64,000 nt of DNA from Tubulanus polymorphus (taxonomy: Eukaryota > Animalia > Nemertea). The notes under the pieces were generated by a model, which saw only the letters and a program-made list of their open reading frames with translations, was not told the DNA's origin and searched no databases. A program made the translations under genes and the position numbers. The stretch lies in NCBI RefSeq assembly GCF_964204645.1, contig NC_134026.1:12894050-12958049 (forward strand), in the 5' to 3' direction. Shown here one piece after another: positions 16,301 through 62,116 of the stretch. Position 1 is the first letter of the stretch, and the number at the start of each line of letters is the position of its first letter.

Positions 16301-17570
16301 TCCAGCGTCTTATAGGTGGCGCTACTGGAGAACCATATGAGTTACATAGTTATACCATACATCAATAAAAGCGTCTTCGCAAGGGCTACTGATCACTCGT
16401 TGCAACCACGGTTCTATCTCCAACGGTTAAGGAGCTAGGAGCAAAAGTCTCATTAAAAAATTTGGGGGCCCATTTTCGAGCCCGTAGAGACAAACGGTTA
16501 ATCGTAGATAGGGCGTGCCATTCACTTTTTTAGCCTCCGAGCTGTTATGAACAACTTTCGTGCTCACCCGAAGCTGAAAAATCAAAGACAAAAAATTTTC
16601 TCACAGTAACTTTTCGATGTCATAATTTTCAAATGTAAAACACGCCCTGGTGGGTGAACGGGGTCCCAAATCAAAGATCCCTTCGACTTACCTCAAGGTA
16701 CCTGTGTTCCGTACATCTCACGAAAGTTTCAAGTAAATCCGTCAAGGAATATTGTAATGCTAGCAGAAGAATAAAGTCATCCAGGCTCTCGCGTATCGAT
16801 AGCTGCATTCATTAGCTCTATCCAGGGAAGTAACTGCAAGGATGCTATTGCTTGTACGTACGTATATGCGGCACAAACAAGGCTATGAAAATTCCTCGGT
16901 TGCCTTCACTCGAGATTGTCCTATTTCAACGGCAAAACAATCGACTCATAGAGTGATAAAAATACTTTTTACTACTGATCTAGAACAGGGCTCTCTATCA
17001 CTGCATATACGGATACGCACTCAAATACACGTACTGCGGTATTGTGGGAATAAGACACGTAGGCAATACACATACGTAGATGGATACTGTTTGAATCGGG
17101 CTTAAATTTCGATGTTTAGAGGCTCACAGTGAGTAAACAGTGGCATTCTGATTAATATTATATACAGTATTTGTCAATGCAGCATAGTACTTGTGATACA
17201 GAATGGTTTCGCCGACAGTGAAAGTAAGTTGCAGTTGTTTTTATCCTTCCAGTAAGATCCAGTGTGAAAAAGAATATAATAATAATAATAATAATAATAA
17301 TCAGCAGGAATACAATAGGGTTTCTGCGAAGGCAGCAGAAACCCTAATAATAATAATCAGCAGGAATACAATAGGGTTTCTGCGAAGGCAGCAGAAACCC
17401 TAAATATAGCTGCAAAGCAGCGATAACGGGTTTCTGCCTTGCTGGATGAGGAGCGCCACCTAGGGGTCAGCTGATAACATGGCTATGTTGATTCACATGG
17501 GATACTACGCGAAAAGTTCTAATGTACCAAGGTTCTATAAAGATTGGTCCAGAAACAGTTTTCTCATTAG
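13319..17570 (-). mobile_element. Head-to-tail array of non-autonomous Helentron-type elements (units ~13319-13804, 13853-15783, 15784-17401, truncated 17402-17570)
   Basis: Repeated 3' ends (minus strand CCCGTTATCGCTGCTTTGCAGCTATATTT with hairpin) at 13853, 15784 and 17402. 5' ends TTAGGGTTTCTGC..GCAGAAACCCTATTG with (ATT)n at ~13800 and 17340-17400. Long shared interiors. Confidence 0.7.
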
Positions 17571-18524
17571 ATGATTATAATTTATTTATGCATTACAAAG
17601 ATTTATGGTTAACTAAAGAAAATAGAAATAATATGATATTTCAAGGCATCCAATCAGAAAACCAAAATAAATTAAGATCATAAGCTAATAATGCAGTAGT
17701 AACTAATGACGTAGATAATTTGATTAAAAAGATTTATTGAAGCAAATATAGAATTCCATTAGACTTTGAATTGATGAATAATAATGCACATTTATATAAA
17801 TATGCAATTCAAGAAGATATTATATTTGAGATAACATTTGCTCCTGTTAATGAAATTTTAATATCAAGTATAATTAAAGATATGGGTTATAAATTATCGA
17901 ATATATGTTTAGAATATGATACAGTAACCGATGAAAATATTTCAAGTATAATTCAAACACAATACAATCAAGGATTTTCATTATTATATGATTATATTGA
18001 TAAATTTAAAACTGTAACTATTAATGCACATGATGAAATAATTAATGAGAATATTAACTTCCCAAGAAGAAATATCAAAGGTATATTAATATTTTTTTAC
18101 CATTGCAACATATTCTAATGGTGCAATACAAGTTGATAAGTATTATAATCCTGAAATAACAAAGGTAGAAATAACTATCGAAGGTATAGCAAATAAAATA
18201 TTTTGTCAAGGAATGAGAATGATCGATTAGTGGCCAGAAATTAGAAAACATTTTATGAATGGAAAAGTAAAATCATCTGAAAATTGTAATATTAATCAAA
18301 TTGATTATTATACCGGTAATAAATATGCATTATGGTTAGATTTTAGAACAACAGAGGATAATTCATTACATGGTTCTGGAAAAAAACTACAGAATACTAA
18401 AGATTGGATACAATTATTCATGGCAATGAAAAAAGGAAGCTTAAATTTCAAAATGCACATTTATATTATATCTGAAGCGCAATTAAATATTGTAAATTCT
18501 CAATTAGATAGTATTCAATATTAG
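17570..18524 (+). pseudogene. Polinton/adintovirus major capsid protein, 5'-truncated and disrupted
   Basis: Peptides YKDLWLTK..FQGIQ, YRIPLDFEL, YKLSNICLEYDTVT, NPEITKVEITIEG and KYALWLDFRTTEDNSLHGSG resemble Polinton capsids. Directly upstream of the integrase and ATPase. Contains in-frame stops and a frameshift. Confidence 0.65.
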
Positions 18525-18554: not shown

Positions 18555-19670
18555 ATGGGCGGTAAAAAAACTCCTAATACTAAAGAACAATATTCAAGAA
18601 ATTTATATTACAACCCTGAGAGTTCGGTTGCTTATTCTTCTGTAAAAAATATATGGCGTCAAGTAAAACAAGATGAATTAGATAAGATAATCCCACAAAA
18701 TTTAGTTAAATATAAAGATATAAATGAATTTATGTTAGAACAACCAACATATACAACACATAAAATAATTGTTAGAAAATATAAAACTCGTAAAACTATG
18801 GTAAGTTATGTAAATCAACAGTGGCAAGGAGATTTAATTGATATGAAAAATGTTAAGAAAGATTGGTGGATATTGAATATAATTGATATTTTTAGTCGTT
18901 ATGTATGGAGCTTCCCACTTTATAGAAAATATGCTGTACAAACATCAAATGTTTTAAGAAAATTTCTTTCGGATGATAAACTAAAACCAAAAAAAATACA
19001 ATTTGATGATGGAAAAGAATTTGATAATTCACTTGTTCATGAACTCTTAGATAATCATAATATTAAATATTTTTCAACAAAATCGGATAAAAAAGCAGCA
19101 GTTGTTGAACGATTTAATACAACATTAAGAACAAGAATGTGGAAATATTTTACAGCAAATAATACTTTTAAATGGATTGATGTTTTACCAAAATTGATAG
19201 AAGGTTATAATAATTCTTATCATTCTTCTATTGGAATGAAACCTATTGATGCTAGAAAACCTGAAAATGCAGAAATTGTTTGGAATAACTTGTATGGGGC
19301 ATTTCTTGTAGATGATTTTGGTGAACCTAAATTTAAAGTTGGTCAAAATGTTAGAATTTCTAAGTATAAAAAGATATTTGACAAAGGATACGATCGAAAT
19401 TTTACTAGGGAAATATATAAAATAAAAAAGGTAATAATAACAAAACCATATGTCTATAAATTATAAGATTTAAATGGTGAAGAAGTTGATGGGTATTTTT
19501 ATGAAGAAGAATTAAGTTTAAATACTGAAAATCTAGAACAAGAATATAAAATTGAAAAAGTATTAAAAACATAAACTATTAAAAGAAAAAAATATTCTTT
19601 AGTAAAATGGGTTGGATGGCCAGATAAATTTAATGAATGGATATTATCAAGTAAAATTAAAAATATATAA
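18555..19670 (+). pseudogene. Polinton retroviral-like (rve) integrase with C-terminal chromodomain
   Basis: WQGDLIDM, IDIFSRY, QFDDGKEF and KAAVVERFN give the DDE triad. After a premature TAA at 19466 the frame continues DLNGEEVDGYFYEEEL...YSLVKWVGWPDKFNEWI (chromodomain). Confidence 0.92.
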
Positions 19671-21608
<1,938 letters not shown>

Positions 21609-21620
21609 AAGCCCCCCACC
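21609..21620 (-). promoter_or_regulatory. Polypurine tract
   Basis: Minus strand GGTGGGGGGCTT immediately precedes the 3' LTR. Confidence 0.8.
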
Positions 21621-32880: not shown

Positions 32881-34955
32881 GGCTACTGCGACTGGTGGTT
32901 CGGTTGGCAGAAATTACTTGTTAACATGGGGGGGGGGGGGAAGTAAGCGTGGATGAAGACAAATTAATTTAGCCGAGTAAGTAGCAAGTAAGTAAAGTAG
33001 TGGCAGTACAGTAGGCCTAGCGACAATGTGAGTGTGGTGGTAACGTGGCCGTGGTGGCAATAACAAGACTCCAAAACTGGCAAAAGCCAAAATTAAAAAG
33101 CCCTGCCGCCGCGCGGTCGCGACGCCTCGCCTGTACCACCGTGTACGATGCTCGCGGCGTTCACCAGTGTTACCCAGTGAGTTTTTTATAATCTTGCAAT
33201 CTACCTCTTTTTTCAAACCAATATTCCCACCAACTGGTCCGGAGACAAGCTTAACACGTTCGGAAAACATGATTCACAATCTTTTAATCAACAGCCAGCA
33301 AGAATACACTTGACAGCAAATTCAAATTCAGCGGTTAACCGTTAAAAGTGAGTTGTTTAGCTGTGGGAGTAACAAAAAGGCGATCTTGATGACGTCACTA
33401 GCCATCGACCAAAACAGGCTTTCAACCTTTTGCCACACGATCTCAAAGTGTCCGAGTTCCAAGGCTTCTTCGTCAGAGCATGGCTACAAGGGTCCGCCTT
33501 CGTCGAACAATCCCGGGTAGTAGGACTGCAAAGGGGAAAAGTCATCCTCCGAAGGTTGATAAATGGAAAGCGGCTGACTCAAGGGAAAAAGGGGTTCCAC
33601 GAGGGCTAAATAGTGTCAGAGGTGAGTGCGAATCGTACCCCACAACCCCATGGCTGGATGAATGGGTCACCAGACCAGTCAGGACGAGTGTCCGCCGTGT
33701 GATCAGTCAAGTCAGGGCCCTTGACAAGACGCGAGATCACACGGTCACCCGAGCACCGGCGCCTACTTCTCCTCTGGTATCCTCTGGTGTAAAGTGTCAT
33801 TCCAAGTGCCTCCAGCACGTAGCTCTCGCAACCGGCTTCTTTGGCTTGCCCCAGCTTACTATGGACTCATGTGACACACAAATTAGGGGAATAAAGGGAC
33901 ACAGACCTCCTCCTCTACTCGCGACAGAGAAAACGAGAGTTTTAAAATTCAATATATATTAATAATATTTTCCAAATTTAACTCGTACGTTCATATAAAT
34001 GAAATGTATATTATATTCTATAATTAAACAGAATAAACTTTTAAAAATCAACGTAGAAAACTTGCTCTGATTCATTATTTTTAACAATCTAATAAATAAT
34101 CTAATTATTGCATTTGCCCGGAATTTAAAAAGGTCGAGCTTATTATGTCTACGGATATATACATAAATTAAGCTCAAAGATCATGTGTCAAGAAAAGAAT
34201 TGACAGAACCGGGTCGCCGAGTTGACCCCGATAACGTTGAACTGACGGCATCTCAGAATTTATATATAGGTCGCCACGTTGACCTATATAAAACGAGATT
34301 TAATAGATCGCCAGGTTGATCTATTAAAGTCAAAAGGGAATCAAAGTGATTATAGGTCGCCAAGTTGACCCAGAGCACAAGATCATTAAGCAATAGACTT
34401 CGTAACGAGGGTCCTACCCGACGCCAAGAGGACTCGGCGCCGGGTTGAACTACGTACCTCAGATAATTTGAGCGAACTGACTTTCTCAATTCAAAAAAGT
34501 GCAAGGTGACATCACGCTGCACTCAGCGCTGATTGGCTGAGTGCCACAATGACGTCAGGAATGCGAGCAACGTGACGTCACATTACAACAAAATGGCGGA
34601 CATTGGAGCGTGAGGAGGTAATTTTTATATAAAACCTAATATAATTAAGTTATAAATGGACGGAACGATAAGAAAAATACGTGAAAACATTTTGATCCAA
34701 GGTTTATACATTCTGTACAAATTTCAAAGCGATACGATAATTTAAAGGTGTGGGAAATGATCGGACAAAATTGCAAAAAGGGGAGATTTAGAAAAGTTGC
34801 GCTAATTACCGCCCAAAACCGACCGACCATTTCCAACACCGGAAATACAAAACTATCAACCACGCGCAGGGCGGCGGAGGAGCTCTGCAGAAGAAAACAC
34901 CCCGAAAAACAACTACGGCAAGGGATTTTCCGCTACAATATATATATATATATAT

Positions 34956-36382
34956 CATTGGTTCAACTGTTTTAGAAGTATCAAAATTATTAATGTATGA
35001 TTTTTATTATAATGTTTTACAACCACTTTTTGGGGAAAAACATATAGAAATCTTATATTTTGATTCTGTAACAGCTGACACCCCAATATTATTAAAATGT
35101 AATGATAAAATTTTAATTAGAAGAATTTCAGAAATAATTCCAAAACAAAATGAATGTTATATTTCATATGGTGAGAAAGAATTAATACAAATAAATGGTT
35201 TAATGGATGTTTGGACAAGAAATGGATGGAAAAAATTAAAGAATATTATTAGGCATAAAACAAATAAGAAAATCTATAGAGTTAGAACTAAATTAGGGTT
35301 TGTAGATGTTACAGAAGATCATAATTTAATTAAACGAAATGGTGATGAAATAAAACCAACTGATATAAAAATTGGAGATGAATTATTACATAAAAGATTT
35401 TTTCCAAAAATGAATCATATGTCATTCGATGAAATTATTGATAATATTTATAATATAGAACCTGAAACATTAGAAGAAAAAGAATATTTTATCAAAGGAT
35501 TTTTCATGGGTGATGGTTCAGCAGGTGTGTATAATTATGTTTGGGGTAATAAATATTGTTGGTATTTATGCAATCAAGACTTGAAATTATTAGAAAGAAT
35601 TAAGAAATTCTGTGAAGAAGTTTATTCACATAAAACATTTGAATCATGGATGTTATGAAATCATCAGCAGTTTATAGAATACTTGTAAATAATCCTAAAG
35701 ATTTTGCTATAAAATATAATGATGAATTCTATATTCATGCAATAGTGAAAAGTAATACTTCAACAAAAGAAAAGATAGTTCCAGATTATGTTCTAAATGC
35801 AAAAGATAATTTAAGAAAATGGTTCTTCATTGGATTCTACGCAGCAGATGGTGCTAAAAAATTTACAAAGGATAAAAAGATAACCTTTGCACAGAAAGGA
35901 AAAGTTGCTATATCAGGATTAAATATATTATGCAGTTCATTAGGATTTAATATGAATATAGAATTAATTAAATCTAAACCAAATTGTTTTAATTTAAGGC
36001 ATACAGAAAAAGATTTAACTGAAGAAGTTAGAGATTTATTTGAAATATATAACTCATCAGATTATGTTTATGATTTATCAACTGAAGATGGTACATTTAA
36101 CTGTGGATTTCCATTAATTTGCTTCAATACTGACGCCTACATACTAAAAATCAAGACAAATGACATAACAAAAGACTTAAAAACATTGAAACATCATTTT
36201 GATTTTAGCAATTATCCCAAAGATCATGAACTATTTAGCAATGATAATAAAAAGATTCCTGGTAAATTTAAAGATGAATTAGGGGGTGATGAAATGATTG
36301 AATTTGTTTGGATAAGAAGTAAAATGTATAGTTATAGAACAAAAGACCATGAAGCTAAAAAATTAAAAGGAATAACAAAAGA
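34956..36382 (+). pseudogene. Polinton protein-primed DNA polymerase B, paralog B copy 1 (C-terminal fragment, intein-containing)
   Basis: IGSTVLEVSKLLMYDFYY..LYFD [intein] TDAY..FDFSNYP..GKFKDE..RSKMYSY..KKLKGITK. Confidence 0.93.
35065..36128 (+). mobile_element. Intein with LAGLIDADG homing endonuclease in pPolB motif C (copy 1; 1-nt deletion near 35640)
   Basis: Block A SVTADTP, block B VTEDH, blocks C/E GFFMGDG and GFYAADG, block F YVYDLST, C-terminal N followed by extein T. Removal restores YFD-TD. Confidence 0.93.
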
Positions 36383-36384
36383 AA

Positions 36385-36756
36385 ATGTATTTATATTTAT
36401 TATTTAACGATTATTATAAAAAACCTAAATTAACAGAAGAAGATATGGAAAATATAAAAGAAACATTCATACAAATATTAAGATATTATGTGGATAATAG
36501 TATAACAGATTCAATTAATTATGAATTCTTTTTAAATAAGATTTTAAATTATCTAAACATCGATATTATAATTCCATTTGATGAATTAACAAACAAAAAG
36601 AAACAAAGAGAGCGAGATGAAATGTGGAATAATATAGAACTTTATTTAAATGAGAAAAATGAAATGGAAGAACCTAAACAAATTATACAAGAACAATTAA
36701 ATGAAAAAGAAGAAACCAATAGTGATTTCGAGTTTGACGATATCGATCCATTTTAA
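36385..36756 (+). CDS. Polinton accessory ORF of unknown function (acidic), possibly 5'-truncated
   Basis: 123-aa ORF with the same AT-rich codon usage. Its stop overlaps the convergent pPolB stop at 36753-36755. Confidence 0.5.
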   Translation: MYLYLLFNDYYKKPKLTEEDMENIKETFIQILRYYVDNSITDSINYEFFLNKILNYLNIDIIIPFDELTNKKKQRERDEMWNNIELYLNEKNEMEEPKQIIQEQLNEKEETNSDFEFDDIDPF

Positions 36757-37710
36757 TAACCATAAGGTAATGTTATACCATCATCTGAAATATGTCTTTT
36801 ATCATCAAATGGATTTAAACTAGTTTTTTCAACTTCATTAAAACAACTTATATCCAGGATTATCATTTACATTGAAATATCTATCACCTAATACACCTGA
36901 AACTCCTCCTCTTATAGATTTTTCAAATAATAATAATTGATCTATATTTGTTAACCAATCCATTTTTATGTCTGTAAATTTTAAACCACAATCCCAAGTT
37001 AATCCTGGTGATGAATAACAATGGCAAGGATCAATATTAAAATATTTTAGGTTTACATCTCTAAACCTTTCGAATATATCCGATAATAATAATACATCAG
37101 ATTTTAAATATAAATCTACTAACTGCCATGATTTGTTATTTTAAAATGATTGCAAATATTCAATGTTCTATTATATACTTCATCTTTAACATATTCATTT
37201 TTTAATTCACCATAGAATTGTTCTTTTAATAATTCAGTTATATTAAAATCATTATGCGATTTATAAAATGAATATGGTATTGCGCCTCTATATCTCATTA
37301 ATTGAAAATCATCATTATTTGGATAGTGTTGTTTTAATATCTTTAATTCATCATCAACTAATGATTTTGATAAGTTATCTAATGAACTACCTAAAAATCT
37401 ATATGAATCCATAATCTTAGACACCCAAATTGGAAAGATATATAATTCTCAGATGTTTTAGCTAACATTTTAAATTTATAAGTTGGTTGGTATTTTATCT
37501 TTTGATCTATTTGAATTTAATTTTTCTATTTCATTATTGATTTCTTCTATTTTATGACATAGCTGTTTGATGAATAAATGAGCTTCATATCCTGATAAAT
37601 TATGAAATATTACTGGAACAAAGTTAATTTTCTTAGCTTGTAAGTTACAATTCTCATGGGCTGCGCCTCTAAACTTTCCATTCAAATGAGCATGGTCTCT
37701 TACTTTTTTA
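36753..37710 (-). pseudogene. Polinton pPolB, paralog A copy 1 (internally deleted)
   Basis: RDHAHLNGKFRGAAHENCNL, FHNLSGY, DSYRFL and RGGVSG, then a jump directly to the C-terminus SLNPFDDKRHISDDGITLPYGY*. Motifs A-C are deleted. Confidence 0.88.
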
Positions 37711-38227
37711 AATTAAAAAATATAGCAAGTCTGCAATTTATCATACAGCGGCACACATGTCGAATCTCACAATTATTACAATACAATTCAAACATAGATT
37801 ATGGAACATGAGCAATTTTTCTAATATGTCACTAGATATTATCAATTTCATAGTCAACGTGGAAAAATAAAAAGCCTTATAAAGTACAGTTTGAAATTAC
37901 ACTGCAAACAAAACTAATTTGAATCACGATATCCCTGATATAGAAATAAAACATTAAATTCCCACAATTGAAAATTGGCTTAAAAGTTTCTCAAAATATA
38001 TCTAGATTTCAATTGAAATTCATACCAATAGGCAATGGAGTACTGTATCATTTTTAGTCAATTAAAAATTGTGGAATTTTAACCTTTAAAAAATGATATA
38101 TTGATAACTTTGGGCTACATGCTATCCGTCGACAACATCACTATTCTACTCCCATATTTACGAGTATTATATAATAGATTGACATGGACATTTTGAATAC
38201 ATTTTATGTAAATAATCATTACACCAT

Positions 38228-38414
38228 CAACCCTATAACCAACTAATCGTCTAAACCCTAAACCTCTTAACCCTAACTATTTTGAAACCTAACAATCTGA
38301 ATTGTAACCCTCTAAACCCTAACCGCCTAAACCCTAAACCCTTACCATCTAAACATTTAACAATCTAAACCATTAACCCTCTAAACCCTAACCCTCTAAA
38401 CACTAAACCCTACA
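38228..38414. repeat. Degenerate telomere-like (CCCTAA-related) satellite, left part
   Basis: AAACCCTAACCCTCT-type units; continues after the TIR element at 46688. Confidence 0.8.
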
Positions 38415-38684
38415 ACCCCTGTGAAGCTGGCTACCGGTTCCCGGTTCCTTATTCGGCTCCCGATTCAAAACCATTTTGAATCGGGAGCACAAGGTTCACA
38501 GTTTTTCATGCAGTCAACCTCGGCTAATTCCTATCACCGTCCTTACATTAATCAGAGTGAGATTGCTGCCCGGCCAAATTGCCCCGTAACAACTGTTTTC
38601 ATGGGTGCCAAATGAGCCCTGAATAAAAACGCTGGACCAGGTTCAAGCCAAATCTAGCACGGGCTAGAGGTTCCGGAAATGACA

Positions 38685-39093: not shown

Positions 39094-39298
39094 CTTAAAA
39101 TATTCATGTACATGAATAACATTTAAATTGACAGATTATTCAATATAAAAGTATATATTTACAACATTATTTCAATATTCATATTTGTGTGAGTTAGATT
39201 TTTAAACATTAAAAGTGTAAGTAAAGTGTGATTGAAATAATGCATGATATAAATCATTGAACTTCTAAAATCAATTTAAAAAAAAATTTAGTATTAAA

Positions 39299-41687
39299 AT
39301 GGAAGCAAATAAGTACTACTGTCCAACATGTAATATCAATATAGATAAATCCCAAAAAGCAAGACACAATAAAACTAAAACACATTTAGAGAATAAATTG
39401 AAACTAGAATATGAAGATGATATATTAGAAACTAAATTAGATGAATTAAAGAATGAAAAAGAAACATATAAATGTGATACATGTAATCAATCATTCAGTG
39501 ATAAAAGATATTATAAAGAACATTTAAAATCTAAAAGTCATATTAGAAATATGAATAATGATATTTTAGGTGAAGATTATTTTGATAAAGATAATGATAA
39601 GAAACAGAAGACAATTAAAAGTATAAAAAATAAATTAAACAATAAAAGACCATACATAGAAGATGTAAGAAAATATATTAATTCATTAGATAATAAAAAA
39701 GATATAGAGATAACCGAAGCATTTAAAAGTGATATTGGCCCAGCAGCTATCGAGTTGAAATTTCATAAAGGAAAAACATTAGAAGAAAATAAAAAACATT
39801 TAGAAAATATGAAAGAAATAATAAAAATAATAACTGATGTTGAATATCCTAAAATAAGTATTTCATTAAAAGTTAAATTCATAAAATCTGAAGATAAACC
39901 AATATATAATATAAATTCTCATTCACAACATATTATATATAATCAACATATAGATGATAAATTAGATAAATGTTTTAATGAAGTAAAAACTAAAATAGAA
40001 GAGAAATATTTTGAAGGATCTGGTTTAATATTTGATGAAATAATATTTATGACTTTACATGTTTATAACACAAAATATAATAAGTTAACTAAATCAAAAC
40101 CAATTGATGAAAATAACGTATCATATTACGTATCATAAGAACCAGATATTGAAGCATCGAGTTATATTAAACTACCATTTAAAACTAATGCTGTAATAAA
40201 TGTACAAAATGAAGATGATAAATGTTTTCTATGGGCTATAAAGAGTTGTTTACAACCAACAGAAGATATTACACATAGTTTTAGATTAACTCATTATAAA
40301 CAATTTGAAAATAATTATAAGATAGATAAGTATCCTGTTTTAATTAAAAACATCCCAAAAATAGAGAAGAGATAATAATATAAAGATAAATGTATTTGAT
40401 TTAATCAAATTACCAAATACAAAAGGTAACAATATAAAACATTATACATTAGAACCTTTATATCTATCAAAAGATTATGATTCAAATGATGTTATAGATA
40501 TACTATATTATGAGAATCATTACATGTGGATTAAACAAATCGATTAATTTTTTTAATCAGAAAATGATCACCATAAAATATATCTTTGTAGAAAATGTTT
40601 ACATAAATTCAGTAATGAAAGTACATTATTAAATCATAAACAATTATGTGAAAATCATGATTATTGTAAATTAGTTTTACCAAATGAAAAAGATAAAATA
40701 TTAGAATTCAAAAAATATGATTACAAAAATAAGGTACCATTTGTAATATATGGAGATTTTGAATCATTAAATAAAGAATTAACTGATCAAGATAGAAAAG
40801 AAATATATTATAAAAGAAAGAAATTAAATTCTAATGAAAATGATCTTTCAGATGAAACGCCAAAACAAATACTATTAAAAAGATTCATCAATCAGCTGCT
40901 GCTTTCGGGTTATATATTAAATCTGATTATCCAGAACTAATTAAAAGTGAATATTATGATTATAGAAATGAAAATGTTATCAATCATTTTTGTGACTTAT
41001 TAATTGAATATGAAATAAGATTTAGTAAATTATTGAATACAAATATAGAAATTATAATGACAGAAGAAGATAAAGAAAAATTTGCGTTTGCAGATAAATG
41101 TTATTATTGTGAAAAGATATTTAATTATAAAGATAAAAAAGTAAGAGACCATGATCATTTGAACGGAAAGTTTAGAGGCGCTGCACATGAGAATTGTAAC
41201 TTACAAGCTAATTAATTTTGTACCAGTTATATTTCATAATCTATCAGGATATGATGCACATTTATTTATCAAACAGTTATGTCATAAAATAGAAGAAATT
41301 AATAATGAAATAGAAAGATTAAATTCAAATAGATCAAAAGATAAAAAACCAACTTATAAATTTAGAATGTTAGCTAAAACATCTGAGAATTATATATCAT
41401 TCCAATTTGGGTGTTTAAGATTTATAGATTCGTATAGATTTTTAAATAGTTCATTAGATAACTTATCAAAATCATTAGTTGATGATGAATTAAAAATATT
41501 AAAACAACATTACCCAAATAATGATGATTTCCAATTAATGAGATATAAAGGCGCAATTCCATATTCATTTTATAAATCACATAATGATTTCAATATATCT
41601 GAATTATTAAAAGAACAATTCTATGATGAATTAAAAAATGAATATGTTAAAGATGAAGTCTATAATAGAACATTGAATATTTGGAAT
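39299..41687 (+). pseudogene. Polinton pPolB, paralog A copy 2 (N-terminal two-thirds)
   Basis: Two N-terminal C2H2 fingers, EGSGL, SYIKLP..NEDDKCFLW, YGDFES (ExoI), endonuclease VII-like CYYC..RDHDHLNGKFRGAAHENCNL, FHNLSGYD (ExoII). Frameshifted and truncated. Confidence 0.92.
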
Positions 41688-44600
41688 TAGTATGTAGGCG
41701 TCGGTATTTTTTTTTGATTAATGGGAACCCAGAATTGAACGTTCCATCATCTGTTGATAAATCATAAACATAGTCAGTTGGGTTATAAATTTCAAATAAA
41801 TCTTTAACTTCTTCTGTTAATTCTTTTTCTACATGCCTTAAATTAAAACAATTTGGTTTAGATTTAATTAATTCTATATTCATATTAAATCCTAATGAAC
41901 TGCATAATATATTTAATCCTGATATAGCAACTTTTCCTTTCTGTGCAAAGGTTATCTTTTTATCCTTTGTAAATTTTTTAGTGCCATCTGCGGCATAGAA
42001 TCCAATGAAGAACCACTTTCTTAAATAATTTTTTGCATTTAATACATAATCTGGTACTATCTTTTCTTTAGTTGAAGTATTACTTTTCACTATTGCATGA
42101 ATATAGAATTCATCATTATATTTCATAGCAAAATCTTTAGGATTATTTACAAGTATTCTATAAACTGCTGATGATTTCATAACATCCATGATTCTAAATG
42201 TTTTATGTGAATAAACTTCTTCACAGAATTTCTTAATTCTTTCTAATAATTTCAAGTCTTGATTGCATAAATACCAACAATATTTATTACCCCAAACATA
42301 ATTATGCACACCTGCTGAACCATCACCCATGAAAAATCCTTTGATAGAATATTCTTTTTCTTCTAATGTTTCGGGTTCTATATTATAAATATTATCAATA
42401 ATTTCATCAAATGACATATGATTCATTCTTTGGAAAAATCTTTTATGTAATAATTCATCTCCAATTTTTATATCAGTTGGTTTTATTTCATCGCCATTTC
42501 GTTTAATTAAACTATGATCTTCTGTAACATCTACAAATCCTAATTTAGTTCTGACTCTATAGATTTTCTTATTTGTTTTATGTCTAATAATATTCTTTTA
42601 TTTTTTCCATCCATTTCTTGTCCAAACATCCATTAATCCATTTATTTGTATTAATTCTTTTTCACCATATGAAATATAACTTTCATTTTGTTTTGGAATT
42701 ATTTCTGAAATTCTTCTTATCAATATTTTATCATTACATTTTAATAATATTGGGGTGTCAGCTGTTACAGAATCAAAATATAATATTTCAATATGCTTTT
42801 CCCCAAAAAGTGGTTGTAAAACATTATAATAAAAATCATACATTAATAATTTTGATACTTCTAAAACAGTTGAACCAATGAATATAGGTTTATTAAATTT
42901 CATTGACGTTCTTTTTAATTTAACTGCTGTTAAATAATCTTCAAATCTTTTATTTCCTAAATGTCTAGGACTTGATTGTAAATGTCTTAATCGTTCAGAA
43001 TTATTTACTAATTCAATATCATTTCTATTTCTAATATTTTCACATGTTTTACCATAAAAACTATTATTCATTAATTTGAAGTAATCTTTTTCAAAATCTG
43101 TTTTTGATATGGTTCTCTGTTGAGTATTAAAATCTATATATTTTTCTAACCACTTCGATTGATTAAATTCAATATATCTATGTACTTTCTTTAATTTCAT
43201 TCCTTGTTTTAGATAAAATTTTAACATTCTATAATGAACAATATAATTGTATTTATTATTTTGAGTAAGTATTAATTTTTCTGTAAAAACATGATCTTTC
43301 GGTTTTATTTTCTTCTGGTATTCACTTAAATAACTATCATCTACAGTTAAATGTTCTGGGCAATAAGGTAAGTTTCTTGTTTTAAACTTTATATTTTCAG
43401 GATATTCTAAATCAACTACAAAGAAATAACCGATTGGTGCTTCATCTTCTAAACTCATAATTGCGCTTTCCCAATTAGTTTTATCACCATTTTCAACTTC
43501 TGTTAGTATAAAATTTTTATATGGTTGAGGTTGCATCATTGCCCAACCATATAAATTATTGGCGTCAATATATAATAATTTATATTCATCATTTGCTTTA
43601 AAATACCATAACACCACTAATTTCACCTCTAATTCATTTTTCAAATAATAAAACCATATCTGGTTCTTTTAATAAATCTAATTCTACATTTGTATATTTT
43701 AAACCACATTGCCAGGTTAAACCAGGACTAGAGTAGCAATAACAAGGATCAACATTAAAATGATTCAAATTAACTTCTCTAAATTTTTCAAATATGTCAG
43801 CCAATATCATAACATCTGATTTTAAATATAAATCAACTAATTCACCATGATTTTTCATCTTAAAATGGTTCCAAATATTTAATGTTCTATTAAACGCTTC
43901 GTCTTTCACATACTCCTCTTTTAATTGGTCATAAAATTGATCTTTTAATAATTCTGTTACATTAAAATCATTGTGTGTTTTATAAAATGAATAAGGAATT
44001 GCGCCTTTATATCTCAATAATTTAAAATCTTGTTCATTTGGATAATAATATCGAGTTATAACAAAATCATTATCAACTAAACTTTTTGATAAATTATCTA
44101 ATGAACTTGCTAGAAATCTATAAGAATCTAAAAATCTAATGCAACCAAATTGAAATGAAATCTAATTTTCAGATGTTTTAGCTAATAGTTTAAAATCATA
44201 TTTTCTTACATTTACACCATTCATAGCATTATATTCTTCTATTTCTTGATTAATTGCACCCAATTTTCTCGATAATTGTATAAATAGATGGGTATCATAG
44301 CCTGATAAATTATGAAATAATATTGGTACGAAATTAACTTTCTTAGCTTGTAAATTACAATCTTCATGAGCAGCTCCACGATATTTTGAATTTAAATGAT
44401 TATGATCTCTAACTTTTTTATCAAATGAATAAAAACGTTTTTCACAATAACAACAATGAGTTGCATAATTATAATCAATTTCATCTTCTTTTGTCATATT
44501 TATTCTTTTATTTTTGTTTAATAATTTTGCAAAATCACTTTCTAATTCAATCATTTTGTCACAAAAATCATTAACTACATTTTCACCTCTGAAAGAAATA

Positions 44601-45988
44601 TATTGATTTTCATATAATTCAGGATAATTTGATTTTATATAAATTCCATAAGCCGCAGCTCTTTGATGAACTTTTTAAATTGTATTTATAATTGGTGGGT
44701 CTTGTATTGTGTCTTCATTTAATTCATTTCCTTTATCCATTGATTTTAATAATTGCTTTTTGTTATATATTTCTTTTCTATCTTGATCAGTTAATTCTTT
44801 ATTCAACGATTCAAAATCCCCATAAAATACAAATGGAACAATATTCTTAAATTTATGATTAGTAAATTTCAATTTATAATCTTTTTCTGTTGGCATTATT
44901 AATTTACAAAAATCTTTATTATCACATAATTCTTTATGTTTTATTAATGTATTCTCAGTCATAAATTTAGATAAACATTTTCTACATAGTTAAATTTTAC
45001 GATGATGATCACTTTCTGTTCTAAAGAATAAATCAATTTGTTTTAACCACATATAATGTTCATTTTCATCTTTTTTATAATATAACAAATCTATAGCATT
45101 TTCATCATCATAATATTCTGTTAAATATAAAGCTTCCAATGTATAATCTTTAATATTTTCACCTTTTGTCTTTGGTAATTGCATTAATTCAAATACATTT
45201 ATTTTTAAATTATTAACTTTTTCTATTTAAGGAATAATTTTTATAGTTACTGGATATTGATCAATTTTATATAATATTTCATATTTCCGATAATCTGTTA
45301 TTCTACAAACATTTTCCTGTGTTGGATGTAAGCAACTAATAATTGACCATAGAAAACATTTATTATCTTCATTTTGAATATTTATTACTGCTTTTGTTGT
45401 AAATGGTAATTTAATATAAGATGATGCTTTAATATCCTTTTCTGTTGTAAAGTTTGAATCATTTTTAAACATTTTATTACTTTTTGATGTTTTATTTCTT
45501 TTTGTATTATAAACATTTAAATCTAAATATATATTTCATTCAATGTTAAGCCAGAACCCTCAAAATATCTTTCTTCAATATGACGTTTAAATTCATTATA
45601 TATTTTTTCTAACTTCTCTTTTATTTGTGTTTTTGAAATTATTTCTTCAGAGAGTGTTTGAATATCATAATCCATTTTATCTTCTGACTTTAAAAAACTT
45701 ACTTTCCCAGAAATACTAATTTTTGGATATTCAAAACCTGTTATTAAATCTAGTATTTTTTCCATTATTTCATTAAATTTATTATAATCTTCTATTGTTG
45801 AACCTTTAAAAAATCTAAATATAATAGCTGCAGGACCAATTTTACTATGTAATGTTTCTAAAATTTCAATTGTATCTTTTATTTCTAGTGAATCGATATA
45901 ATTTCTAACATTTTCCATGTAAGGTTTATTTGAAATGGATTTAGTTTTTGAAGTTGGTTTTTTTACTTTTTGAGGTTTATCGTTTTTC
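41687..45988 (-). pseudogene. Polinton pPolB, paralog B copy 2 (intein-containing, frameshifted, truncated at both ends)
   Basis: YGDFES, RDHNHLNSKYRGAAH, FHNLSGYD, YLKSDV, motif A YIDANNLYGWAM, motif B KLMNNSFYGK, motif C YFD[intein]TDAY. Confidence 0.93.
41706..42771 (-). mobile_element. Intein with LAGLIDADG homing endonuclease (copy 2; TAA at 42598-42600, +1 A in the run at 41707-41715)
   Basis: Near-identical to 35065-36128. Ends FPLIKKN|TDAY after removing one A. Confidence 0.92.
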
Positions 45989-46687
45989 TGGCTGGTGTTC
46001 ATTCTCTCCCATTTATTAGGAAAAAAATTACTTGTGGTGATGAGTGGTGTCTCGCCCTCTCGTCCTCTGATCTGAAACCCACATCTTCCAATTACTGATT
46101 TCCATTGCACACAGACGAAAATATTACGCTATAAACTGAAATATAAATTTAGCCTAACGGCCGTGAAGGTTTGAAAGGTTTTTCCAAAATATCAAAGCAT
46201 TAAGGATTTCAAAGTGATATTGCAATACGTACTTTTTATGGGGTACCTCAAGGAACACACAATGGGATTCACCAAATAAAATATTTCGAGCGAGGCATAA
46301 GAATCAATGACAGATATATTTTCTGGAAAGGACTGGTCACGGAAATTATGTTTTAATCCTTTAGATGTTTGTCATTAATTGGTTTGTCATAAATTGATGG
46401 GTCCAAATGTACCGTGTTAAAACCACAATCAGCAAACATTTTCATTATTGCCAAAGACTGAAAATGTTCCATTGCAAACAAATTAAACAAATTAACAGAT
46501 ATTCATTTAAAAAATTCATTCAGTTGAACATGTAATTGTAAATAATTTTATCCTCCCTCAAGCATTGAAATGTTGGGTGAAATGGTGAAAATAAATCCAT
46601 TCTTTTCTTATTCTGTTCTGATCAAATATTTACTTGAGTTGCAGACATCGGCACGCACGTGGAACCGGGAGCCAGCTTCACAGGGGT

Positions 46688-47810
46688 AACCCTTCACTCT
46701 AAACCCTAACCCCTTTACCCTACCCCTCTAAACCTAACCCGCTAAACACTAAACCCTCTAAACACTAAATCCTAACCCTCTAAACCCTAACCCTATGAAC
46801 CCTACCCCCAAACCCTAACCCCCTAAACCCTTTCCCTCTAAACCTAAACCTCTAAACCCTAACCCAATAAATCCTAACCCTCTAAATCCTAACCCTCTGA
46901 ACCCTAACCCCCTGAACCCTATCCCTGTAAAACCTTACCCTATAAACCCTTAACCCTTACCATCTAAGCACTTAACCCTCTAAACAATTAACCCTATAAA
47001 CCCTAAACCATTACCATCTAAACACTTAACCCTCTAAACAATTAACTCCCTTAACCCTACCCCTCTAAACCTTACCCTCTAAACCTAACCCTCTAAACAC
47101 TGAACCCTCTAAAAACTAAACCCTAACTCTCTAAACCCTGTCCTTTAAACCCTAAACCTCTAAAGCATAACACCCTAAACCCTAACCCTATGAATCCTAA
47201 CCCTCTAAACCCTAATCCTCTAAACCCTGTCCCTCTAAACCCTAACCCTCTAACCCCTAAACCCTAACCCTATAAATCCTACCCCTCTAAACCCTAACCC
47301 TCTGAACCCTAACCCTTTAAACCCTAATCCTCTAAACCCTGTCCCTCTAAACCCTAACCCTCTAACCCCTTAACCTTATAAATCCTCACCCTCTGAACCC
47401 TAACCCTCCGAACCCTAACCGCCTGAACCTAACCCCTAAACCCTATTCCTCTAAACCTAACCCTCTAAACCCTAACCCTCTGAACCCTAACTACCTAAGC
47501 CCTAACCCTATAAATCCTAACCCTCTAAACCCTTACCCTCTAAACCCTAACCCCCTAAACCCTTACCCTATAAATCCTAACCCTTTAAACCCTAACCCCC
47601 TCTAAACCCTAACCCTATAAATCCAAACCCTATAAATATATTATTAAATATATATTATTATATATATTCAAATATATATAATAAAGCCCAATATAATATT
47701 ACTTTAATATAATTAATATAATATTTCTATCTCTTTAAACCCAAACCCTCCAAACCCTAAACCTCTAAACCCTATTCTTCTAAACCCTAACCTTCTAAAC
47801 CCTAACCCTA
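46688..47810. repeat. Degenerate telomere-like satellite (AAACCCTAACCCTCT-type ~15-bp units)
   Basis: Dense CCCTAA/CCCTAAA variants over 1.1 kb. Confidence 0.9.
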
Positions 47811-47811
47811 C

Positions 47812-48400
47812 TTTTCTAAAAGAAATGAAAGGATAGTAGAATAGGGGAGTAAAATAGTAGTATAGTAGGATAGTTAACTATTCTAAAAGAAAGTGAAAGG
47901 ATAGTAGAGTAGGGAAGTAGAATAGTAGAATTGTAGGATAGTTAACTATTCTAAAAGAAATGAAAGGATAGTAGAATAGTAGGATAGTTAACTATTCTCA
48001 AAGAAAGTGAAAGGATAGTAGAGTAGGCAAGTCGAATAGTAGAATTGGGGTGTAGAATAGTAGAATAGTAGAATAGTTAACTATTCTAAAAGAAATGAAC
48101 GGATAGTAGAATAGGGAAGTAGAATAGTAGAGTAGTAGAATAGTTAACTTTTTTAAAAGAAATGAAAGGATAGTAGAATAGTAGAATAGTTAACTTTTCT
48201 TAAAGAAATGAAAGGATAGTAGAATAGGGATGTAGAATAATAGAATAGTAGAATAGTTAACTATTCTAAAAGAAATGAAAGGATAGAAGAATAGTAGAAT
48301 AGTTAACTATTCTAAAATAAATGAAAGGATAGTAGAATAGTAGAATAGTTAACTATTCTAAAAGAAATGAAAGGATAGTAGAATAGTAGAATAGTTAATT
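47812..48400. repeat. Minisatellite with ~44-62-bp units (TAGTAGAATAGTTAACTATTCTAAAAGAAATGAAAGGA)
   Basis: About 10 units, each with the internal palindrome AGAATAGTTAACTATTCT. Confidence 0.92.
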
Positions 48401-48539
48401 ATACAACTATTATAAGATCCCGCACCATTATGTTCTATTATAGGTTCTGGTTGAGTTATTTTAGTGTCTGTTGGTACTTTTTGTATTATTGAACGAGGAA
48501 TTGATGGTAATAATTCGCGATCGTATCGTTCCGTTGGTT

Positions 48540-56851: not shown

Positions 56852-57719
56852 TATATGTTTTAATAAACATTTTATCACTTAATTCATTTATTGTGGGATT
56901 TTACTCCTCCATTATATATTTCATGTTTACAAACAAAAAATTTTCTGTCTTGAAGACACAACCCAAAAGACGTGTCTATACCTCCAATTCTTGAAATAAT
57001 AACTACACACTTAAAGTATTGCAATGCATTCAAGCACTTGTGATGCAATACATTCTAGCACATGTGATGCTCTAACATACCCCAAACCAATCTAGAAATA
57101 CAACAAACATACTACCCAGGCGTACTACAGATAATCATTCACCTTTTCCTACATTGCAGGTTCTTCACAGGCACCTGCGCCTTTTGACTGCATTCAAATT
57201 CCTAAACCTCAACAGGTCTTGCCTGCTAAAACACAAAAACTATCCACAGAGCCAATGTAAGATGTTTGAATTATAACACAGGTAAATTTGTTCTAATTTT
57301 ATCTTGTCTTTATTCTATCTCTTCCTTTGTAACACTATTATTCACATTAAAGTGCCACTACATGAACTTAACACATCATCCTCTGTCTTCAAGAAATAAC
57401 CCAGTGAGACATGATTATCCCAATTATCAACAATTCTTGCGGTGCATCTACTTGATGCACTTATAAATTTACAATTTATAATATCTGCTTATTTTGTATC
57501 AATTGGAACCAGCTCCATTAGTGTGATATAAGTGTCATGTTATCAGCCTATGTCACATTCATGCATCATGTAGGATATAATTGAGGTCACACTTCTAGTC
57601 CATTACAACATGATAATCTTTTGCCCATTACTAGCCTTGTGTATCCGTCCACTTCTGATCTAACTATTTTGGTTTTTTCCATACTACTAGCCATCATCTA
57701 CCTCTTCTTCTTTTACAGA

Positions 57720-60700
57720 TTCTTCACAACTATCAGTGCTTATTCACTCCATCCAAGCAACTCGTCGCCAAGGAGATCCAATTTTTGGACCGACTGCTGG
57801 AAATGAATGTCTCTCCAATTCAGTACTTTTTTTAATTCACTACCACATCTCTCCGTCAGTAACCACACAATTATTTGATGATATTCTGATTGAAGGAAAT
57901 GATTTGCATCAAAGTATAGGAATTAATCGTTACCTGCTGCATACTGAACTTCCATCACGCGTTATACTACATTCTGGACAAACATTTTCCTTACATTTGT
58001 ATGAATCAATAGCTGGCAACACCTACAGTGGCATAATTCAACATGCTCCCTTTTGGAGTTTAAAGGATGCATTGGATATCGCCTAACCTGTAATTACATC
58101 TTACTGACTATGGGGTCAAATCCAGGATAGGCAATATCCATTGTAAAGATGGCTAACAGATATGCACTATTTGACCCTCATGCCAGAGATGTCTTTGGAA
58201 TGCCATCTCACATTGGAAAAGCTACTTGTATGTATAGAACTACGGTGGATGCTATTCTCACTCATATCAATCATCTTGCATTATCACTGTTTCCATCAAG
58301 CCCTGATGTGTGCCAATTTGAATTGACTCCATTGGATATCTCTGAAGCTCCAAAAACATTTTCTGATAGTTCTCTGATCAATAAATATTTCGACGAACAA
58401 TCATCAAAACAAGCTAGACACAAAACAAGAGCACTCTTATGGTCTGCTTCAATGCTGAAACAAGCAAGGGGTGAGAAAGAAACGAAGCACCAGTCTGATC
58501 CTGTAGTGAAACAAACTAGACGCGAGAGAGAAGCTAAGCAACGGTCTGATCCTGTAGTAAAACCAGCAAGACGCGAGAGAGAAGCTAAACAACGGTCTGA
58601 TCCTCTAGTAAAACAAACTAGACGTGAAAGAGAGGCAAAGCAACGATCTGATCCTGTAGTAAAACAAGCAAGACGGGAGAGAGAAGCTAAACAACGGTCT
58701 GATCCTATAGTTAAACAAGCAAGAGGTGATAGAGAAACAAAGCAACGGTCTGATCCTGTAGTTAAACACGCAAGAGGTGATAGAGAAACAAAGCAACGGT
58801 CTGAACCTGTAGTTAAACATGCAAGAGGTAATAGAGAAACAAAGCAACGGTCTGATCCTGTAGTTAAACAAGCAAGAGGTGATAGAGAAACAAAGCAACG
58901 GTCTGATCCTATAGTTAAACAAGCAAGAGGTGATAGAGAAACAAAGCAACGGTCTGATCCTGTGGTGAAACGAGCTAGATGTGTAAGAGAAGCAAAGCAA
59001 CGATCTAATCCAGTAGTAAGACGAGCAACCCGTGAGAGAGAAGCTAAGCAACGGTCTGATCCTCTAGTAAAACAGCAAGACGTGAAAGAGAGGCAAAGCT
59101 ACGATCTGATCCTGTTGTTAAACAAGCAAGACGTGAAAGAGAGGCAAAGCTACGATCTGATCCTGTAGTAAAGCGAGCAAGACGCGAGAGAGAAGCTAAA
59201 CGACGGTCTGATCCTATAGTTAAACAAACAAGAGGTGATAGAGAAACAAAGCAACGGTCTGATCCTGTAGTATAAACAAGCAAGAGGTGATAGAGAAAGA
59301 AAGCAACGGTCTGACCCTGTAGTTCAACTAGCAAGAGGTGATAGAGAAACAAAGCATCGGTCTGATCCTGTAGTTCGTCAAGCAAGAGGTAATAGAGAAA
59401 GAAAGCAACGGTCTGATCCTGTAGTAAAACAAGCAAGACGTGGAAGAGAAACAAAACATCACTCACAACCACATGTAAAAAAAGCACACATGTTTCAACA
59501 ATCAGCTAGGCGAAGACAATTAAATGTACCTCAAAGAGCGAAAATTAAGATTTCTGATAGATTAAATCATCGCGTCATCCGTCAGCTATTGATGATGTCC
59601 TCAAAAGATTTCGAAATAATATCTGTAATTTCCCTGAGTATGTCTGCACATGCTGTCGAAGATTATTGTATAAACTGACTGTCAAGAAAGTGACTAAACA
59701 ACTGCTTATGAAACTACCACCTGATAGTCAATCCAAAGGAATTACAGGCAGAATTTCAACAGATGATACTGAATGGATTTGTTTTACATGTTTACGTTAT
59801 TTGACTAAAGGAGATATCCCGCCACAAGCTAAATGTAACAACATGTCTTTACCTGATATTCCACCAGAACTCAAAGATTTAACGCAACTTGAGCGACGAC
59901 TTCCTTCACAGAGGTATCCGTTTATGAAGTTATTAGCACTACCCAAAGGTAAACAAACTGGTTTAAAAGGCGGTGTTGTCAACATCCCTGTGAATGAAAA
60001 TGCAGTTTGCTACAACTTACCTAAGACCCCACAAGATGCTGGTCTCATTCCACTGAAACTGAAACAAAAAATAGTCTACAAAACGTATGATAAATTTGAA
60101 TTTATTCGCCCTAATAAAGTACTTAAAGCTCTACAATGGCAGAAGAAGAATAATAAGTTGTACCATTCAGTGGGCACAAATTATAATTGGGAACAACAAG
60201 CAGAAAATGAGGATATTGATATGTGGAAGGAATTAACTGGTAAAGAAGAAACGGTTAAGCCAAGAAAACACAATTCCAATAAGAATTATTCAGATGGTTT
60301 GCAGGACATTCATGCTCAGAATAAAATTGTCAACCGAGCAACTGTTAACCACCAAAACCATGATGATGCGGGTAAGAAACTTTCCATGATATGCACAGGA
60401 TTCATGTTGATCATGGAAAATGAAGCAACTGTTAACCCACATAACCATGATGTACCTATGCATCTGCTTGATGATATACAAGTGGTCGATGATCAAAATA
60501 CAAGGAAATACAAACGACTTCATTCATCCAACCCTCAGCTGTTGACTCTGATGATTACTACTTGATCCCATTTCTCAGTTAAGAGGTGTACATTATGAAG
60601 CCTGTTTACAATCTACTGACCCGTCCATAGATGCTGACACCGCTAGAGTTATAACACCAGGGGAAGGGAAAAAGCCAATCAGTCTACTTATGGATGACCA

Positions 60701-61795
60701 CATTAAAGAAATGGCATTTCCAACTGGAGAATTTGGCTGGAAAACTGATAGACTGATAAATTTAACCGTGAAGAAATACTTTCAGCAACGTATTCTAGAT
60801 GAGTCTCAAAGATTCGCAGCTGACATAGAATATATATTTGTTGCACAGACGATAACAGATGGTAAACAAGTTACAGACAGCATCAACATAGCACTACGGA
60901 AATCATTTCTCCAATCTCCTAGTGAATATAGTCACTATACTGCTAGAAACTTCAAGAGTCCGGATAATATCAGAAGTTTTATTGGAAAATATTATGCATA
61001 CCAATTCCTTCAACCCATTCGTGGAACACCTCCATATTGGCAGAAAGTACAGTATAAATTATTATCTAGCATTAAACAATTAGGAATCTTCACCTGGTTT
61101 TTTACATCTGCAGCTGACATGAAATGGCATGACACTATACAAGCCATAGCAAGACAAAGTGGTACTACACTACGCTGAATGTATTGAAGGAATGACTTGG
61201 GATCAAAAATCATTGTGGCTCAGAACTAATCCTGCAACTGCTGTACGTCATTTTGATTACCGTTTTCAATGTTTCATGAAGGATGTTATACTCAGCAATG
61301 CTCATCCCATTGGAGAAGTCAGTGGGATACTTTTTTCGAATCGAGTTCCAACAACGAGGATCACCACATGCTCATGGTGTATTGCGGATAAAAGATGCAC
61401 CAAATCCAGAAAAGGATTCACCGGAAATAATAGCAAAATTCATTAATTCTTATATATCAGCCCAACTTCCAAAAGATGAAGATTCAGAACTCTACACTCT
61501 TGTTTCTTTTCTCCAACGCCATTCACACTCTGCAGCATGTAAGAAGAAAGGTACCCATTGTCGATTCAACTTTCCAAAACCTATTTCAGACAGAACTTTG
61601 GTACTATACCCAGAGGACCTTTCCAATGAAGCCCCAAAACAAACAGCTCTTAGACATAAACATTCGCTTCAAGTGTTGAACATAGTCAAGACCTATCTGT
61701 TGGAAAATGATGTTGACACATTGTCAGTAAGTGATGTCCTATATATTTGTGACCTAAAGAATTCAGATTACTATTCAACATTGAATGATAGACAC
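57720..61795 (+). pseudogene. Degraded Helentron/Helitron2 Rep(-Hel) gene, truncated before the helicase
   Basis: N-terminal QGDPIFG..AGNECLSNS and FDPHARD (herpes tegument-type Cys protease-like); DUF6570-like CFTC..IPPELKDLT.LE..PFMK; IRGTPPYW, FFTSAAD..W, HUH motif RIEFQQRGSPHAH, QRHSHSAAC..CRFNFP. Many frameshifts. Confidence 0.88.
58460..59445 (+). repeat. 51-bp coding tandem repeat (17 aa: KQARREREAKQRSDPVV) in the Helentron ORF
   Basis: About 19 units; variation is concentrated at third codon positions. Confidence 0.92.
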
Positions 61796-62116
61796 TACTC
61801 AGTGATAGTACGGCCTGGGTCAAACTCGAGCGAGTTGCAGATGGTGAACAGCGCACCATACGGCTTGAAATATAATTGTGAACTGATACAGATAAAAATA
61901 GACTGTCGAGGAAAGTCTCTGTCTTATCATCTGGGTCATGGCACCTCACTTCCCACAGGTCGTTATTTCCACAGTTAATTGAGGGTATCAGCTTACATAG
62001 TAAGTGCTAATACATGAAACTATTTCACTCCTTTTTGACTGGGTAGTTGAATCCGAGAACGAGAACAGACTTTGAAACAGATCAACGCAATATATCGGCT
62101 AAATCAAGATACCTTT

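Follow-up and report, generated by a model that had tools for sequence, protein, structure and literature searches.

A survey recorded inteins from fungi, from the chloroplasts of algae, from some protists and from large DNA viruses (PMC5784728), and PMC5874633 describes them as absent from multicellular organisms. The closest described system to the insert reported here is the intein in the family B DNA polymerase (PolB) of Mimivirus (R322, 351 aa; PMC549080), together with the PolB inteins of other Nucleocytoviricota (PMC5784728). The Mimivirus intein sits in polymerase motif C, starts with Ser, carries a TxxH motif and two LAGLIDADG motifs, and ends with Asn in front of Thr. Our insert has all of these features and a similar length. 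In contrast to Mimivirus, its C-terminal block is one residue shorter, and its host protein is a protein-primed PolB (pPolB), the extein of which does not match that of Mimivirus significantly in BLAST. The inteins at archaeal PolB site III (pol-c) also share the insertion site and the architecture, but their identity to it is 22-29% in full-length matches and they form separate clades.

The second related system is the pPolB of Polinton/Maverick elements (adintoviruses) with nuclease insertions (10.1101/2023.08.22.554363, PMC11071308, PMC8502044). Similar to our locus, these have an endonuclease VII-like domain, with an rve integrase and an A32 ATPase nearby. The available text of these papers describes HNH and VSR insertions, not a HINT plus LAGLIDADG insert in motif C. 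One sentence in PMC11071308 tentatively traces the nucleases inserted in pPolB back to invading inteins, and the word "intein" does not occur in the accessible text of PMC8502044 and of the nematode preprint (10.1101/2023.08.22.554363).

A third comparison is Anaeramoeba (PMC10710043), where virus-related inteins move between unlike host genes and intein-bearing viral polymerases lie on nuclear scaffolds; rare non-allelic intein events were proposed there. Those cases differ in concerning protists and algae, with RNA-primed or cellular host proteins, and the terms polinton, maverick and protein-primed gave no hit in two supplements of that paper. In the literature covered, which includes parts of PMC12220804, PMC13768754, PMC5718144, 10.64898/2026.10.13.758929, PMC5874633, PMC5784728 and PMC11071308, we came across no protein-primed polymerase described as having an intein at motif C; the tables of the nematode study or Repbase may hold such sequences.

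The insert and its host polymerase

We analysed a stretch of 64,000 nucleotides of Tubulanus polymorphus DNA (the window), whose features are collected in Table 1.

Table 1. Intein, polymerase and Polinton features in the window
Feature	Position	Strand	Remarks
Intein copy 1 (HINT + LAGLIDADG) in pPolB motif C	35065..36128	+	Ser start, Asn end, +1 Thr; frameshift near 35640
First LAGLIDADG motif of copy 1, GFFMGDG	35497..35517	+	Acidic residue kept
Second LAGLIDADG motif of copy 1, GFYAADG	35832..35852	+	Acidic residue kept
N-extein remnant of copy 1	34955..35064	+	~36 codons; upstream end at a (TA)n run adjoining a 1.5-kb repeat
C-extein of copy 1	36129..36404	+	Begins Thr-Asp-Ala; 78-85% identity to P0308-P0311, the four closest intein-less pPolBs
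Intein copy 2	41706..42771	-	In-frame stop at 42598-42600; A-run frameshift near 41716; ~95% nucleotide identity to copy 1
N-extein of copy 2	42772..46128	-	pPolB with endonuclease VII-like and PF03175 matches; several stops
C-extein of copy 2	41687..41705	-	Six codons only, then junction to an opposite-strand pPolB fragment
Second pPolB fragment	39269..41687	+	~73% identical; ends before motif C
Third pPolB fragment	36838..37712	-	Internal deletions
VLTF3-like ORF	36376..36756	+	PF04947, E 2.4e-6
rve integrase	18555..19466	+	Matches 19 of 29 viral contigs carrying the same pPolB class
A32-type packaging ATPase, 5' part	19671..19926	+	Broken at a (TA)n run

A sequence-only reading of this DNA had placed an intein at 35065..35860. 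All of the motifs that it quoted were found in the sequence and its start was right, but the intein runs on to 36128. In copy 1, the first residue is Ser at 35065 and the last is Asn at 36126-36128, followed by Thr-Asp-Ala. The junction is Y-F-D/S...N/T-D (slashes mark the intein ends), so that the insert separates the first Asp of motif C from its Thr (pol-c, which is PolB site III). Breaks aside, both copies have the S...N/T ends, and empty relatives are continuous through F-D-T-D. The motifs of copy 1 are split between two ORFs (34792-35658 and 35643-36407) because of its single frameshift. Its C-terminus is Cys-Phe-Asn; the Lys-Asn/Thr-Asp end of copy 2 lies in a frame different from that of the intein body. 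The two copies fall within a 1.2-kb stretch of 94.7% identity.

Two motifs of class 1 inteins were found, block B (TxxH) as TEDH and block F as YVYDL. The penultimate residue, canonically His, is Phe in copy 1, Lys in copy 2, Ser, His or Lys in relatives and Lys in Mimivirus. A penultimate residue other than His is a common intein variation. Pfam searches of the window piece gave Intein_splicing at E 3.5e-6 (27.3 bits, below the Pfam cut-off of 35.8) and LAGLIDADG_3 at E 2.6e-5, and the Pfam intein hit of a relative, P0002, was above the cut-off.

An AlphaFold model was made of the longest single-frame piece, without the first ~58 residues (pLDDT 81). Its best PDB matches were the intein homing endonucleases TliVMA, PI-PkoII, PI-SceI and PI-PfuI, and the best structural matches of the folded piece were whole inteins. 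The fold is I-DmoI-like (I-DmoI matched with an rmsd of ~3 A over 190 columns). Among viral structure models, the first matches were the PolB inteins of a phycodnavirus, pandoraviruses and a marseillevirus. Judged from its motifs and modelled fold, the insert is a real intein of the known pol-c allele, predicted to self-splice. Both copies in the window are broken. The parallel to the Mimivirus pol-c intein drawn in the sequence-only reading held: the two share the site, the Ser start and the Lys-Asn/Thr end, and they are 38% identical over 300 aa.

The extein was identified as protein-primed by its PF03175 match and by the fold match of its relative P0308. P0308 is the closest intein-less relative (89% identity in the N-extein), and its model matched the polymerases of MELD virus, adintovirus and bidnavirus with E values from 1e-54 to 1e-35, far above any giant-virus PolB. 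These matches in sequence and model support a Polinton/adintovirus-type protein-primed PolB. The sequence-only reading had likewise called the extein a protein-primed polymerase that is only distantly related to NCLDV PolB.

The element is a broken Polinton. There are three pPolB fragments in the window, with endonuclease VII-like and PF03175 matches, and the Polinton-type parts are scattered among Ty3/gypsy and Helitron pieces; the transposon content seems to be of an animal kind. We infer that the integrase and the ATPase, ~15 kb away behind insertions, belong to the same Polinton copy as the polymerase. Broken ORF pieces at 17492..18524 on the + strand may resemble a Polinton major capsid protein; Pfam and further searches of these pieces gave no match to a capsid gene. 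Among the 25 longest of 83 inverted pairs in this rearranged locus, there was no long terminal pair that could represent terminal inverted repeats.

Several other structures were observed around these remnants. The segments 39269-41687 (+) and 41687-46128 (-) are different pPolB copies (~73% identity) that meet tail to tail at 41687, both ends being truncated. Two direct repeats of 1.5 kb (20122-21609 and 33437-34938; 98.7% identity) surround a Ty3/gypsy gag-pol and a PHD-finger ORF, and probably represent the LTRs of a young retrotransposon that went into a (TA)n run between the ATPase and polymerase remnants of the Polinton. Degenerate telomere-like C-rich repeats with a 15-bp period (38229-38420 and 46688-47810) bracket the inverted pair of pPolB fragments and are followed by a AGTAGAAT-rich array at 47810-48402; the repeats and the array are possibly element ends. 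A Helitron-like element occupies 57691-61978; it has a deubiquitinase domain of the herpes tegument type, DUF6570 and a 51-bp tandem array. A pPolB that is 61% identical to the window extein, P0317, bears the UniRef label Sulfurimonas sp., which is probably a binning contaminant.

Relatives of the intein and its position in trees

The best 4 of 885 long-protein hits were pPolBs with an intein at the same site (63, 49, 48 and 45% identity), and 115 of the next 116 listed hits carried PF00136, the RNA-primed PolB domain. Shorter protein hits were partial family members at 46-75%. The four pPolBs were compared as protein sequences. Three of them, P0001-P0003, belong to the window polymerase class. 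The fourth, P0004, represents a different pPolB class: BLAST found no match between its extein and that of the window, yet its intein is 44-46% identical to the other pPolB inteins. Intact single-ORF proteins of pPolB plus intein are present in JGI and ENA records.

The next tier reached at most 43%. It contained the best RNA-primed PolB inteins (40-43%), many of them on giant-virus MAG contigs, the Mimivirus intein at 38%, and also Pol-delta-like proteins, phage-type polymerases, Asgard archaeal PolBs and topoisomerases. An identity of 43% over the full query was not exceeded by any of the viral and metagenome loci examined. Of the 37+80 viral and 80 metagenome loci, none was recognised as an intein-bearing pPolB (7 of 117 new ones unclassed), and the intein was absent from all 29 viral contigs carrying the window pPolB class. 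Plasmids gave no match to the intein, phages a single match of 26%, and the ESM Atlas generic LAGLIDADG intein clusters only.

The insert is 38-42% identical to pol-c inteins of RNA-primed polymerases whose exteins have no significant BLAST match to the window extein. For this reason a jump between polymerase classes at motif C, as the sequence-only reading had proposed, is well supported by the comparison of sequences. The explanation that we favour, and consider fairly probable, is that a LAGLIDADG intein in a broken Polinton pPolB belongs to a small clade that arose by a single old jump out of the RNA-primed pol-c inteins, most likely those of a giant virus, and has been spread and lost since.

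The intein type seems to jump widely, because it is also found in Asgard archaeal PolBs and in topoisomerases. Two Asgard-type PolBs (L038:4001-4822 and L039:4001-4828) carry a viral-type pol-c intein (34-36% identity) instead of an archaeal one, and their relatives L044 and L060 have the distant archaeal type at the same site; this is likely a cross-domain intein replacement. The same intein type was seen at a D-x-D/T-D-G site in P0082, a type II topoisomerase by Pfam, and in L137, L149, L150, L152, L154 and L156, which have its junction. The topoisomerase-site inteins would be another non-allelic jump. The phage-type polymerases P0129 and P0130 (phrog_262; the P0129 contig is 236 kb) have inteins ~50% identical to giant-virus PolB inteins.

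For the trees, ~370 inteins were gathered; 45 or 66 were used in IQ-TREE and 251 rows in FastTree, with archaeal pol-c inteins as the outgroup. Inteins outside 300-470 aa (280-470 for later loci) or missed by the junction pattern, six near-identical mates of P0002 and the pieces of copy 1 were left out. The 66-row C20 tree was a quick tree; support values come from the 45-row and 66-row IQ-TREE trees only, and the other trees give topology. The constrained searches of the AU tests were redone longer for three hypotheses, and those for Asgard and phage were short.

The pPolB inteins were monophyletic in every tree (SH-aLRT/UFBoot 99.9/100 with 45 rows, 100 with 66 rows) and were nested among viral-type inteins in both rooted IQ-TREE trees. 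With 45 rows, a 33-row group that excludes the root and has the pPolB inteins nested in it received 93.5/91, and pPolB plus outgroup received 0% of the bootstrap. The sister group was a marine giant-virus/phage subgroup in 51% and the Pol-delta-like pair P0007+P0255 in 48% of the 45-row bootstrap.

A C-terminal block that is one residue shorter, N-[TCS]-G-x-x-L, was present in 6/6 pPolB inteins and in 43 others, some of which are on giant-virus MAG contigs; 294 of the 301 remaining ingroup inteins have the longer block. The subgroup with the shorter block, which includes two phage-type polymerases, was picked by the motif itself and is also a supported clade on its own (99, 66 rows). As a shared sequence feature, the shorter block favours the giant-virus subgroup as the sister. 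In the polymerase tree, the giant-virus exteins of this subgroup group with Mimivirus, apart from a marseillevirus-like group, and the neighbour genes of these PolBs include minor capsid P11.

Mimivirus itself as the sister was rejected (AU p 0.010 under LG and 0.007 under C20; 0% bootstrap; the constrained search stopped before completion). A Mimiviridae-type source, as the sequence-only reading had it, thus did not hold in the narrow sense, and "Mimiviridae" in the broad sense is possible because the best giant-virus candidates group with Mimivirus in the polymerase tree. On these sequence relationships, the source was probably a giant virus in the broad sense. An Asgard sister gave AU p 0.053/0.007 (LG/C20; short searches) and was rejected under C20 only.

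The same history could have had a different donor, either a Pol-delta-like polymerase, from a cell or from another group of large DNA viruses, or a phage polymerase, instead of a Mimivirus-related giant virus. P0007 has a Pol delta C4 zinc finger, the delta-like pair was chosen as sister in the C20 quick tree (66 rows; SH-aLRT 92) and was not rejected by the AU test (p 0.63/0.34 for LG/C20), and PMC10710043 reports Pol delta inteins in Chloropicon and Anaeramoeba. However, neither P0007 nor P0255 has the shorter C-terminal block, and the composition of P0255 is odd. A phage sister was not rejected either (AU p 0.14/0.16 for LG/C20; short searches), but one tree had 22 non-pPolB inteins with the signature and only 2 of these are phage-type. 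We regard such a donor as rather unlikely.

The direction could also be the reverse. If the pPolB inteins were sister to all viral/eukaryote-type pol-c inteins, the split would be very old and the intein possibly went from Polintons to giant viruses. The 251-row FastTree tree with the archaeal outgroup did put the root on the pPolB stem, and the AU test did not reject this basal position (p 0.15/0.15 for LG/C20). It nevertheless had 0% bootstrap, and the distant outgroup together with the long pPolB stem invites long-branch attraction. Moreover, the polymerase split is too old for inteins that are still 38-43% identical to those of giant viruses, and pPolB inteins are rare (4/110 parsed exteins, 0/29 viral contigs). 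A basal position therefore seems unlikely to us.

Selection, probable homing and age

Between the intein copies 1 and 2 there are 31 synonymous and 18 nonsynonymous differences over ~196 and 851 sites, respectively, and the copies have diverged under purifying selection, which acted on the intein until recently. Because pN/pS is 0.13, two working intein-bearing polymerases likely split first and broke later. The intein and extein identities of six pairs were 63/58, 49/46, 48/44, 47/48, 45/46 and 65/66 (r 0.95; the six pairs are non-independent, so the correlation is descriptive only). The two distances track each other, which suggests that the intein has been in the window class since its polymerases were ~45% apart.

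Occurrence of the intein is patchy. It was found in 4 of the 110 parsed exteins (17 more were unparsed). In the extein tree, whose rows were chosen to include intein-bearing ones, it was present in 6/43 rows, which needed 6 changes, and the nearest extein of the window on the tree (89-90%) is empty. The P0002 cluster has 136 members on contigs of up to 1 Mb; of 15 listed, 7 are filled, 6 are empty and 2 are fragments. Around the site, three empty alleles of this cluster diverge from P0002 by 13 of 70 residues, but upstream by only 6-14 of 1021 (~99% match); among six filled mates the figure around the site is 1-3 of 70. This pattern points to recombination centred on the insertion site, which may be either co-conversion by homing or the mark of resistant empty alleles. 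Since intein and extein distances track, and near-identical filled and empty alleles coexist in the P0002 family, the transfer looks ancient and followed by homing and loss among Polintons.

In the separate comparison of intein and extein for which the sequence-only reading had called, the intein fell first into a pPolB-specific clade and its identities were congruent with those of the extein within the class, which goes partly against that reading; the jump between classes stands. A recent uptake by the Polinton lineage from a Mimiviridae virus, with virophage-like dependence, is very improbable. It would account for the site, the Ser start, the Lys-Asn/Thr end and the identity shared with Mimivirus, and the signature-bearing giant-virus polymerases do group with Mimivirus; Polinton-like elements associated with entomopoxviruses are also described in PMC11296320. 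But Mimivirus as sister was rejected by the AU test, the nearest relatives are other pPolB inteins (45-75%), the fetched viral and metagenome loci were all at or below 43% over the whole query, and the intein distances agree with those of the extein. We accordingly reject a recent transfer into this lineage. The virophage-like association of the Polinton, to which the sequence-only reading had extended its claim, does not follow from one old transfer, which requires a single shared cell, once. A chimeric assembly, or viral DNA that came to lie beside a Polinton by chance, has next to no probability and was rejected in spite of the heavily rearranged region, by the same precise junction in two copies, the intact single-ORF relatives in JGI and ENA, and the similar base composition (GC 0.26 in the intein versus 0.24 in the extein).

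Proposed history and significance

According to the favoured explanation, an old jump would have carried a pol-c intein from an RNA-primed family B polymerase, most likely of a giant virus, into a Polinton pPolB. In an intact precursor, splicing via Ser1, TxxH, the terminal Asn and the +1 Thr is predicted from intein chemistry to rebuild the catalytic D-T-D; the element could therefore lose the insert only precisely. Other Polinton copies in the same nucleus with an empty motif C would be cut there by the endonuclease, after which repair would copy the intein plus flanks into the cut allele. Such allelic homing among Polinton copies may explain why intein and extein distances track.

The flanks of the window insert match those of 24 signature-bearing loci at ~8/15 bases upstream and 7/15 downstream, no better than those of other groups. 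Because the match is so limited, the class-crossing jumps cannot have been ordinary homing. Both the initial jump and a second, from one Polinton polymerase class to another, would instead have been rare non-allelic events on few bases of similarity, like those proposed for Anaeramoeba. Each class-crossing event would need donor and recipient DNA in one cell once, and dependence on a helper virus is unnecessary. The favoured explanation is weakened in that the patchy presence equally fits repeated loss, and the divergent block around the site may mark resistant empty alleles.

A bolder version can be put forward tentatively: the intein was captured once from a giant virus sharing a cell with a Polinton, now homes between Polintons in animal chromosomes, and has crossed the two main polymerase classes. 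If true, the nuclear DNA of animals would contain a protein-splicing element that works, and Polintons and giant viruses would have left a dated trace of their contact. The finding does not show that animal Polintons are virophages.

In conclusion, the insert is a known pol-c allele in a host protein class for which no earlier report was found. An intein clade specific to protein-primed polymerases would add a new host protein class, and it shows pol-c inteins to be capable of crossing between polymerases with little in common beyond motif C. The multicopy P0002 cluster, with its filled and empty alleles, offers a natural system for homing among integrated elements. The hosts of these elements are probably animals, and if they are, the Polintons would provide a chromosomal niche for inteins in animals.
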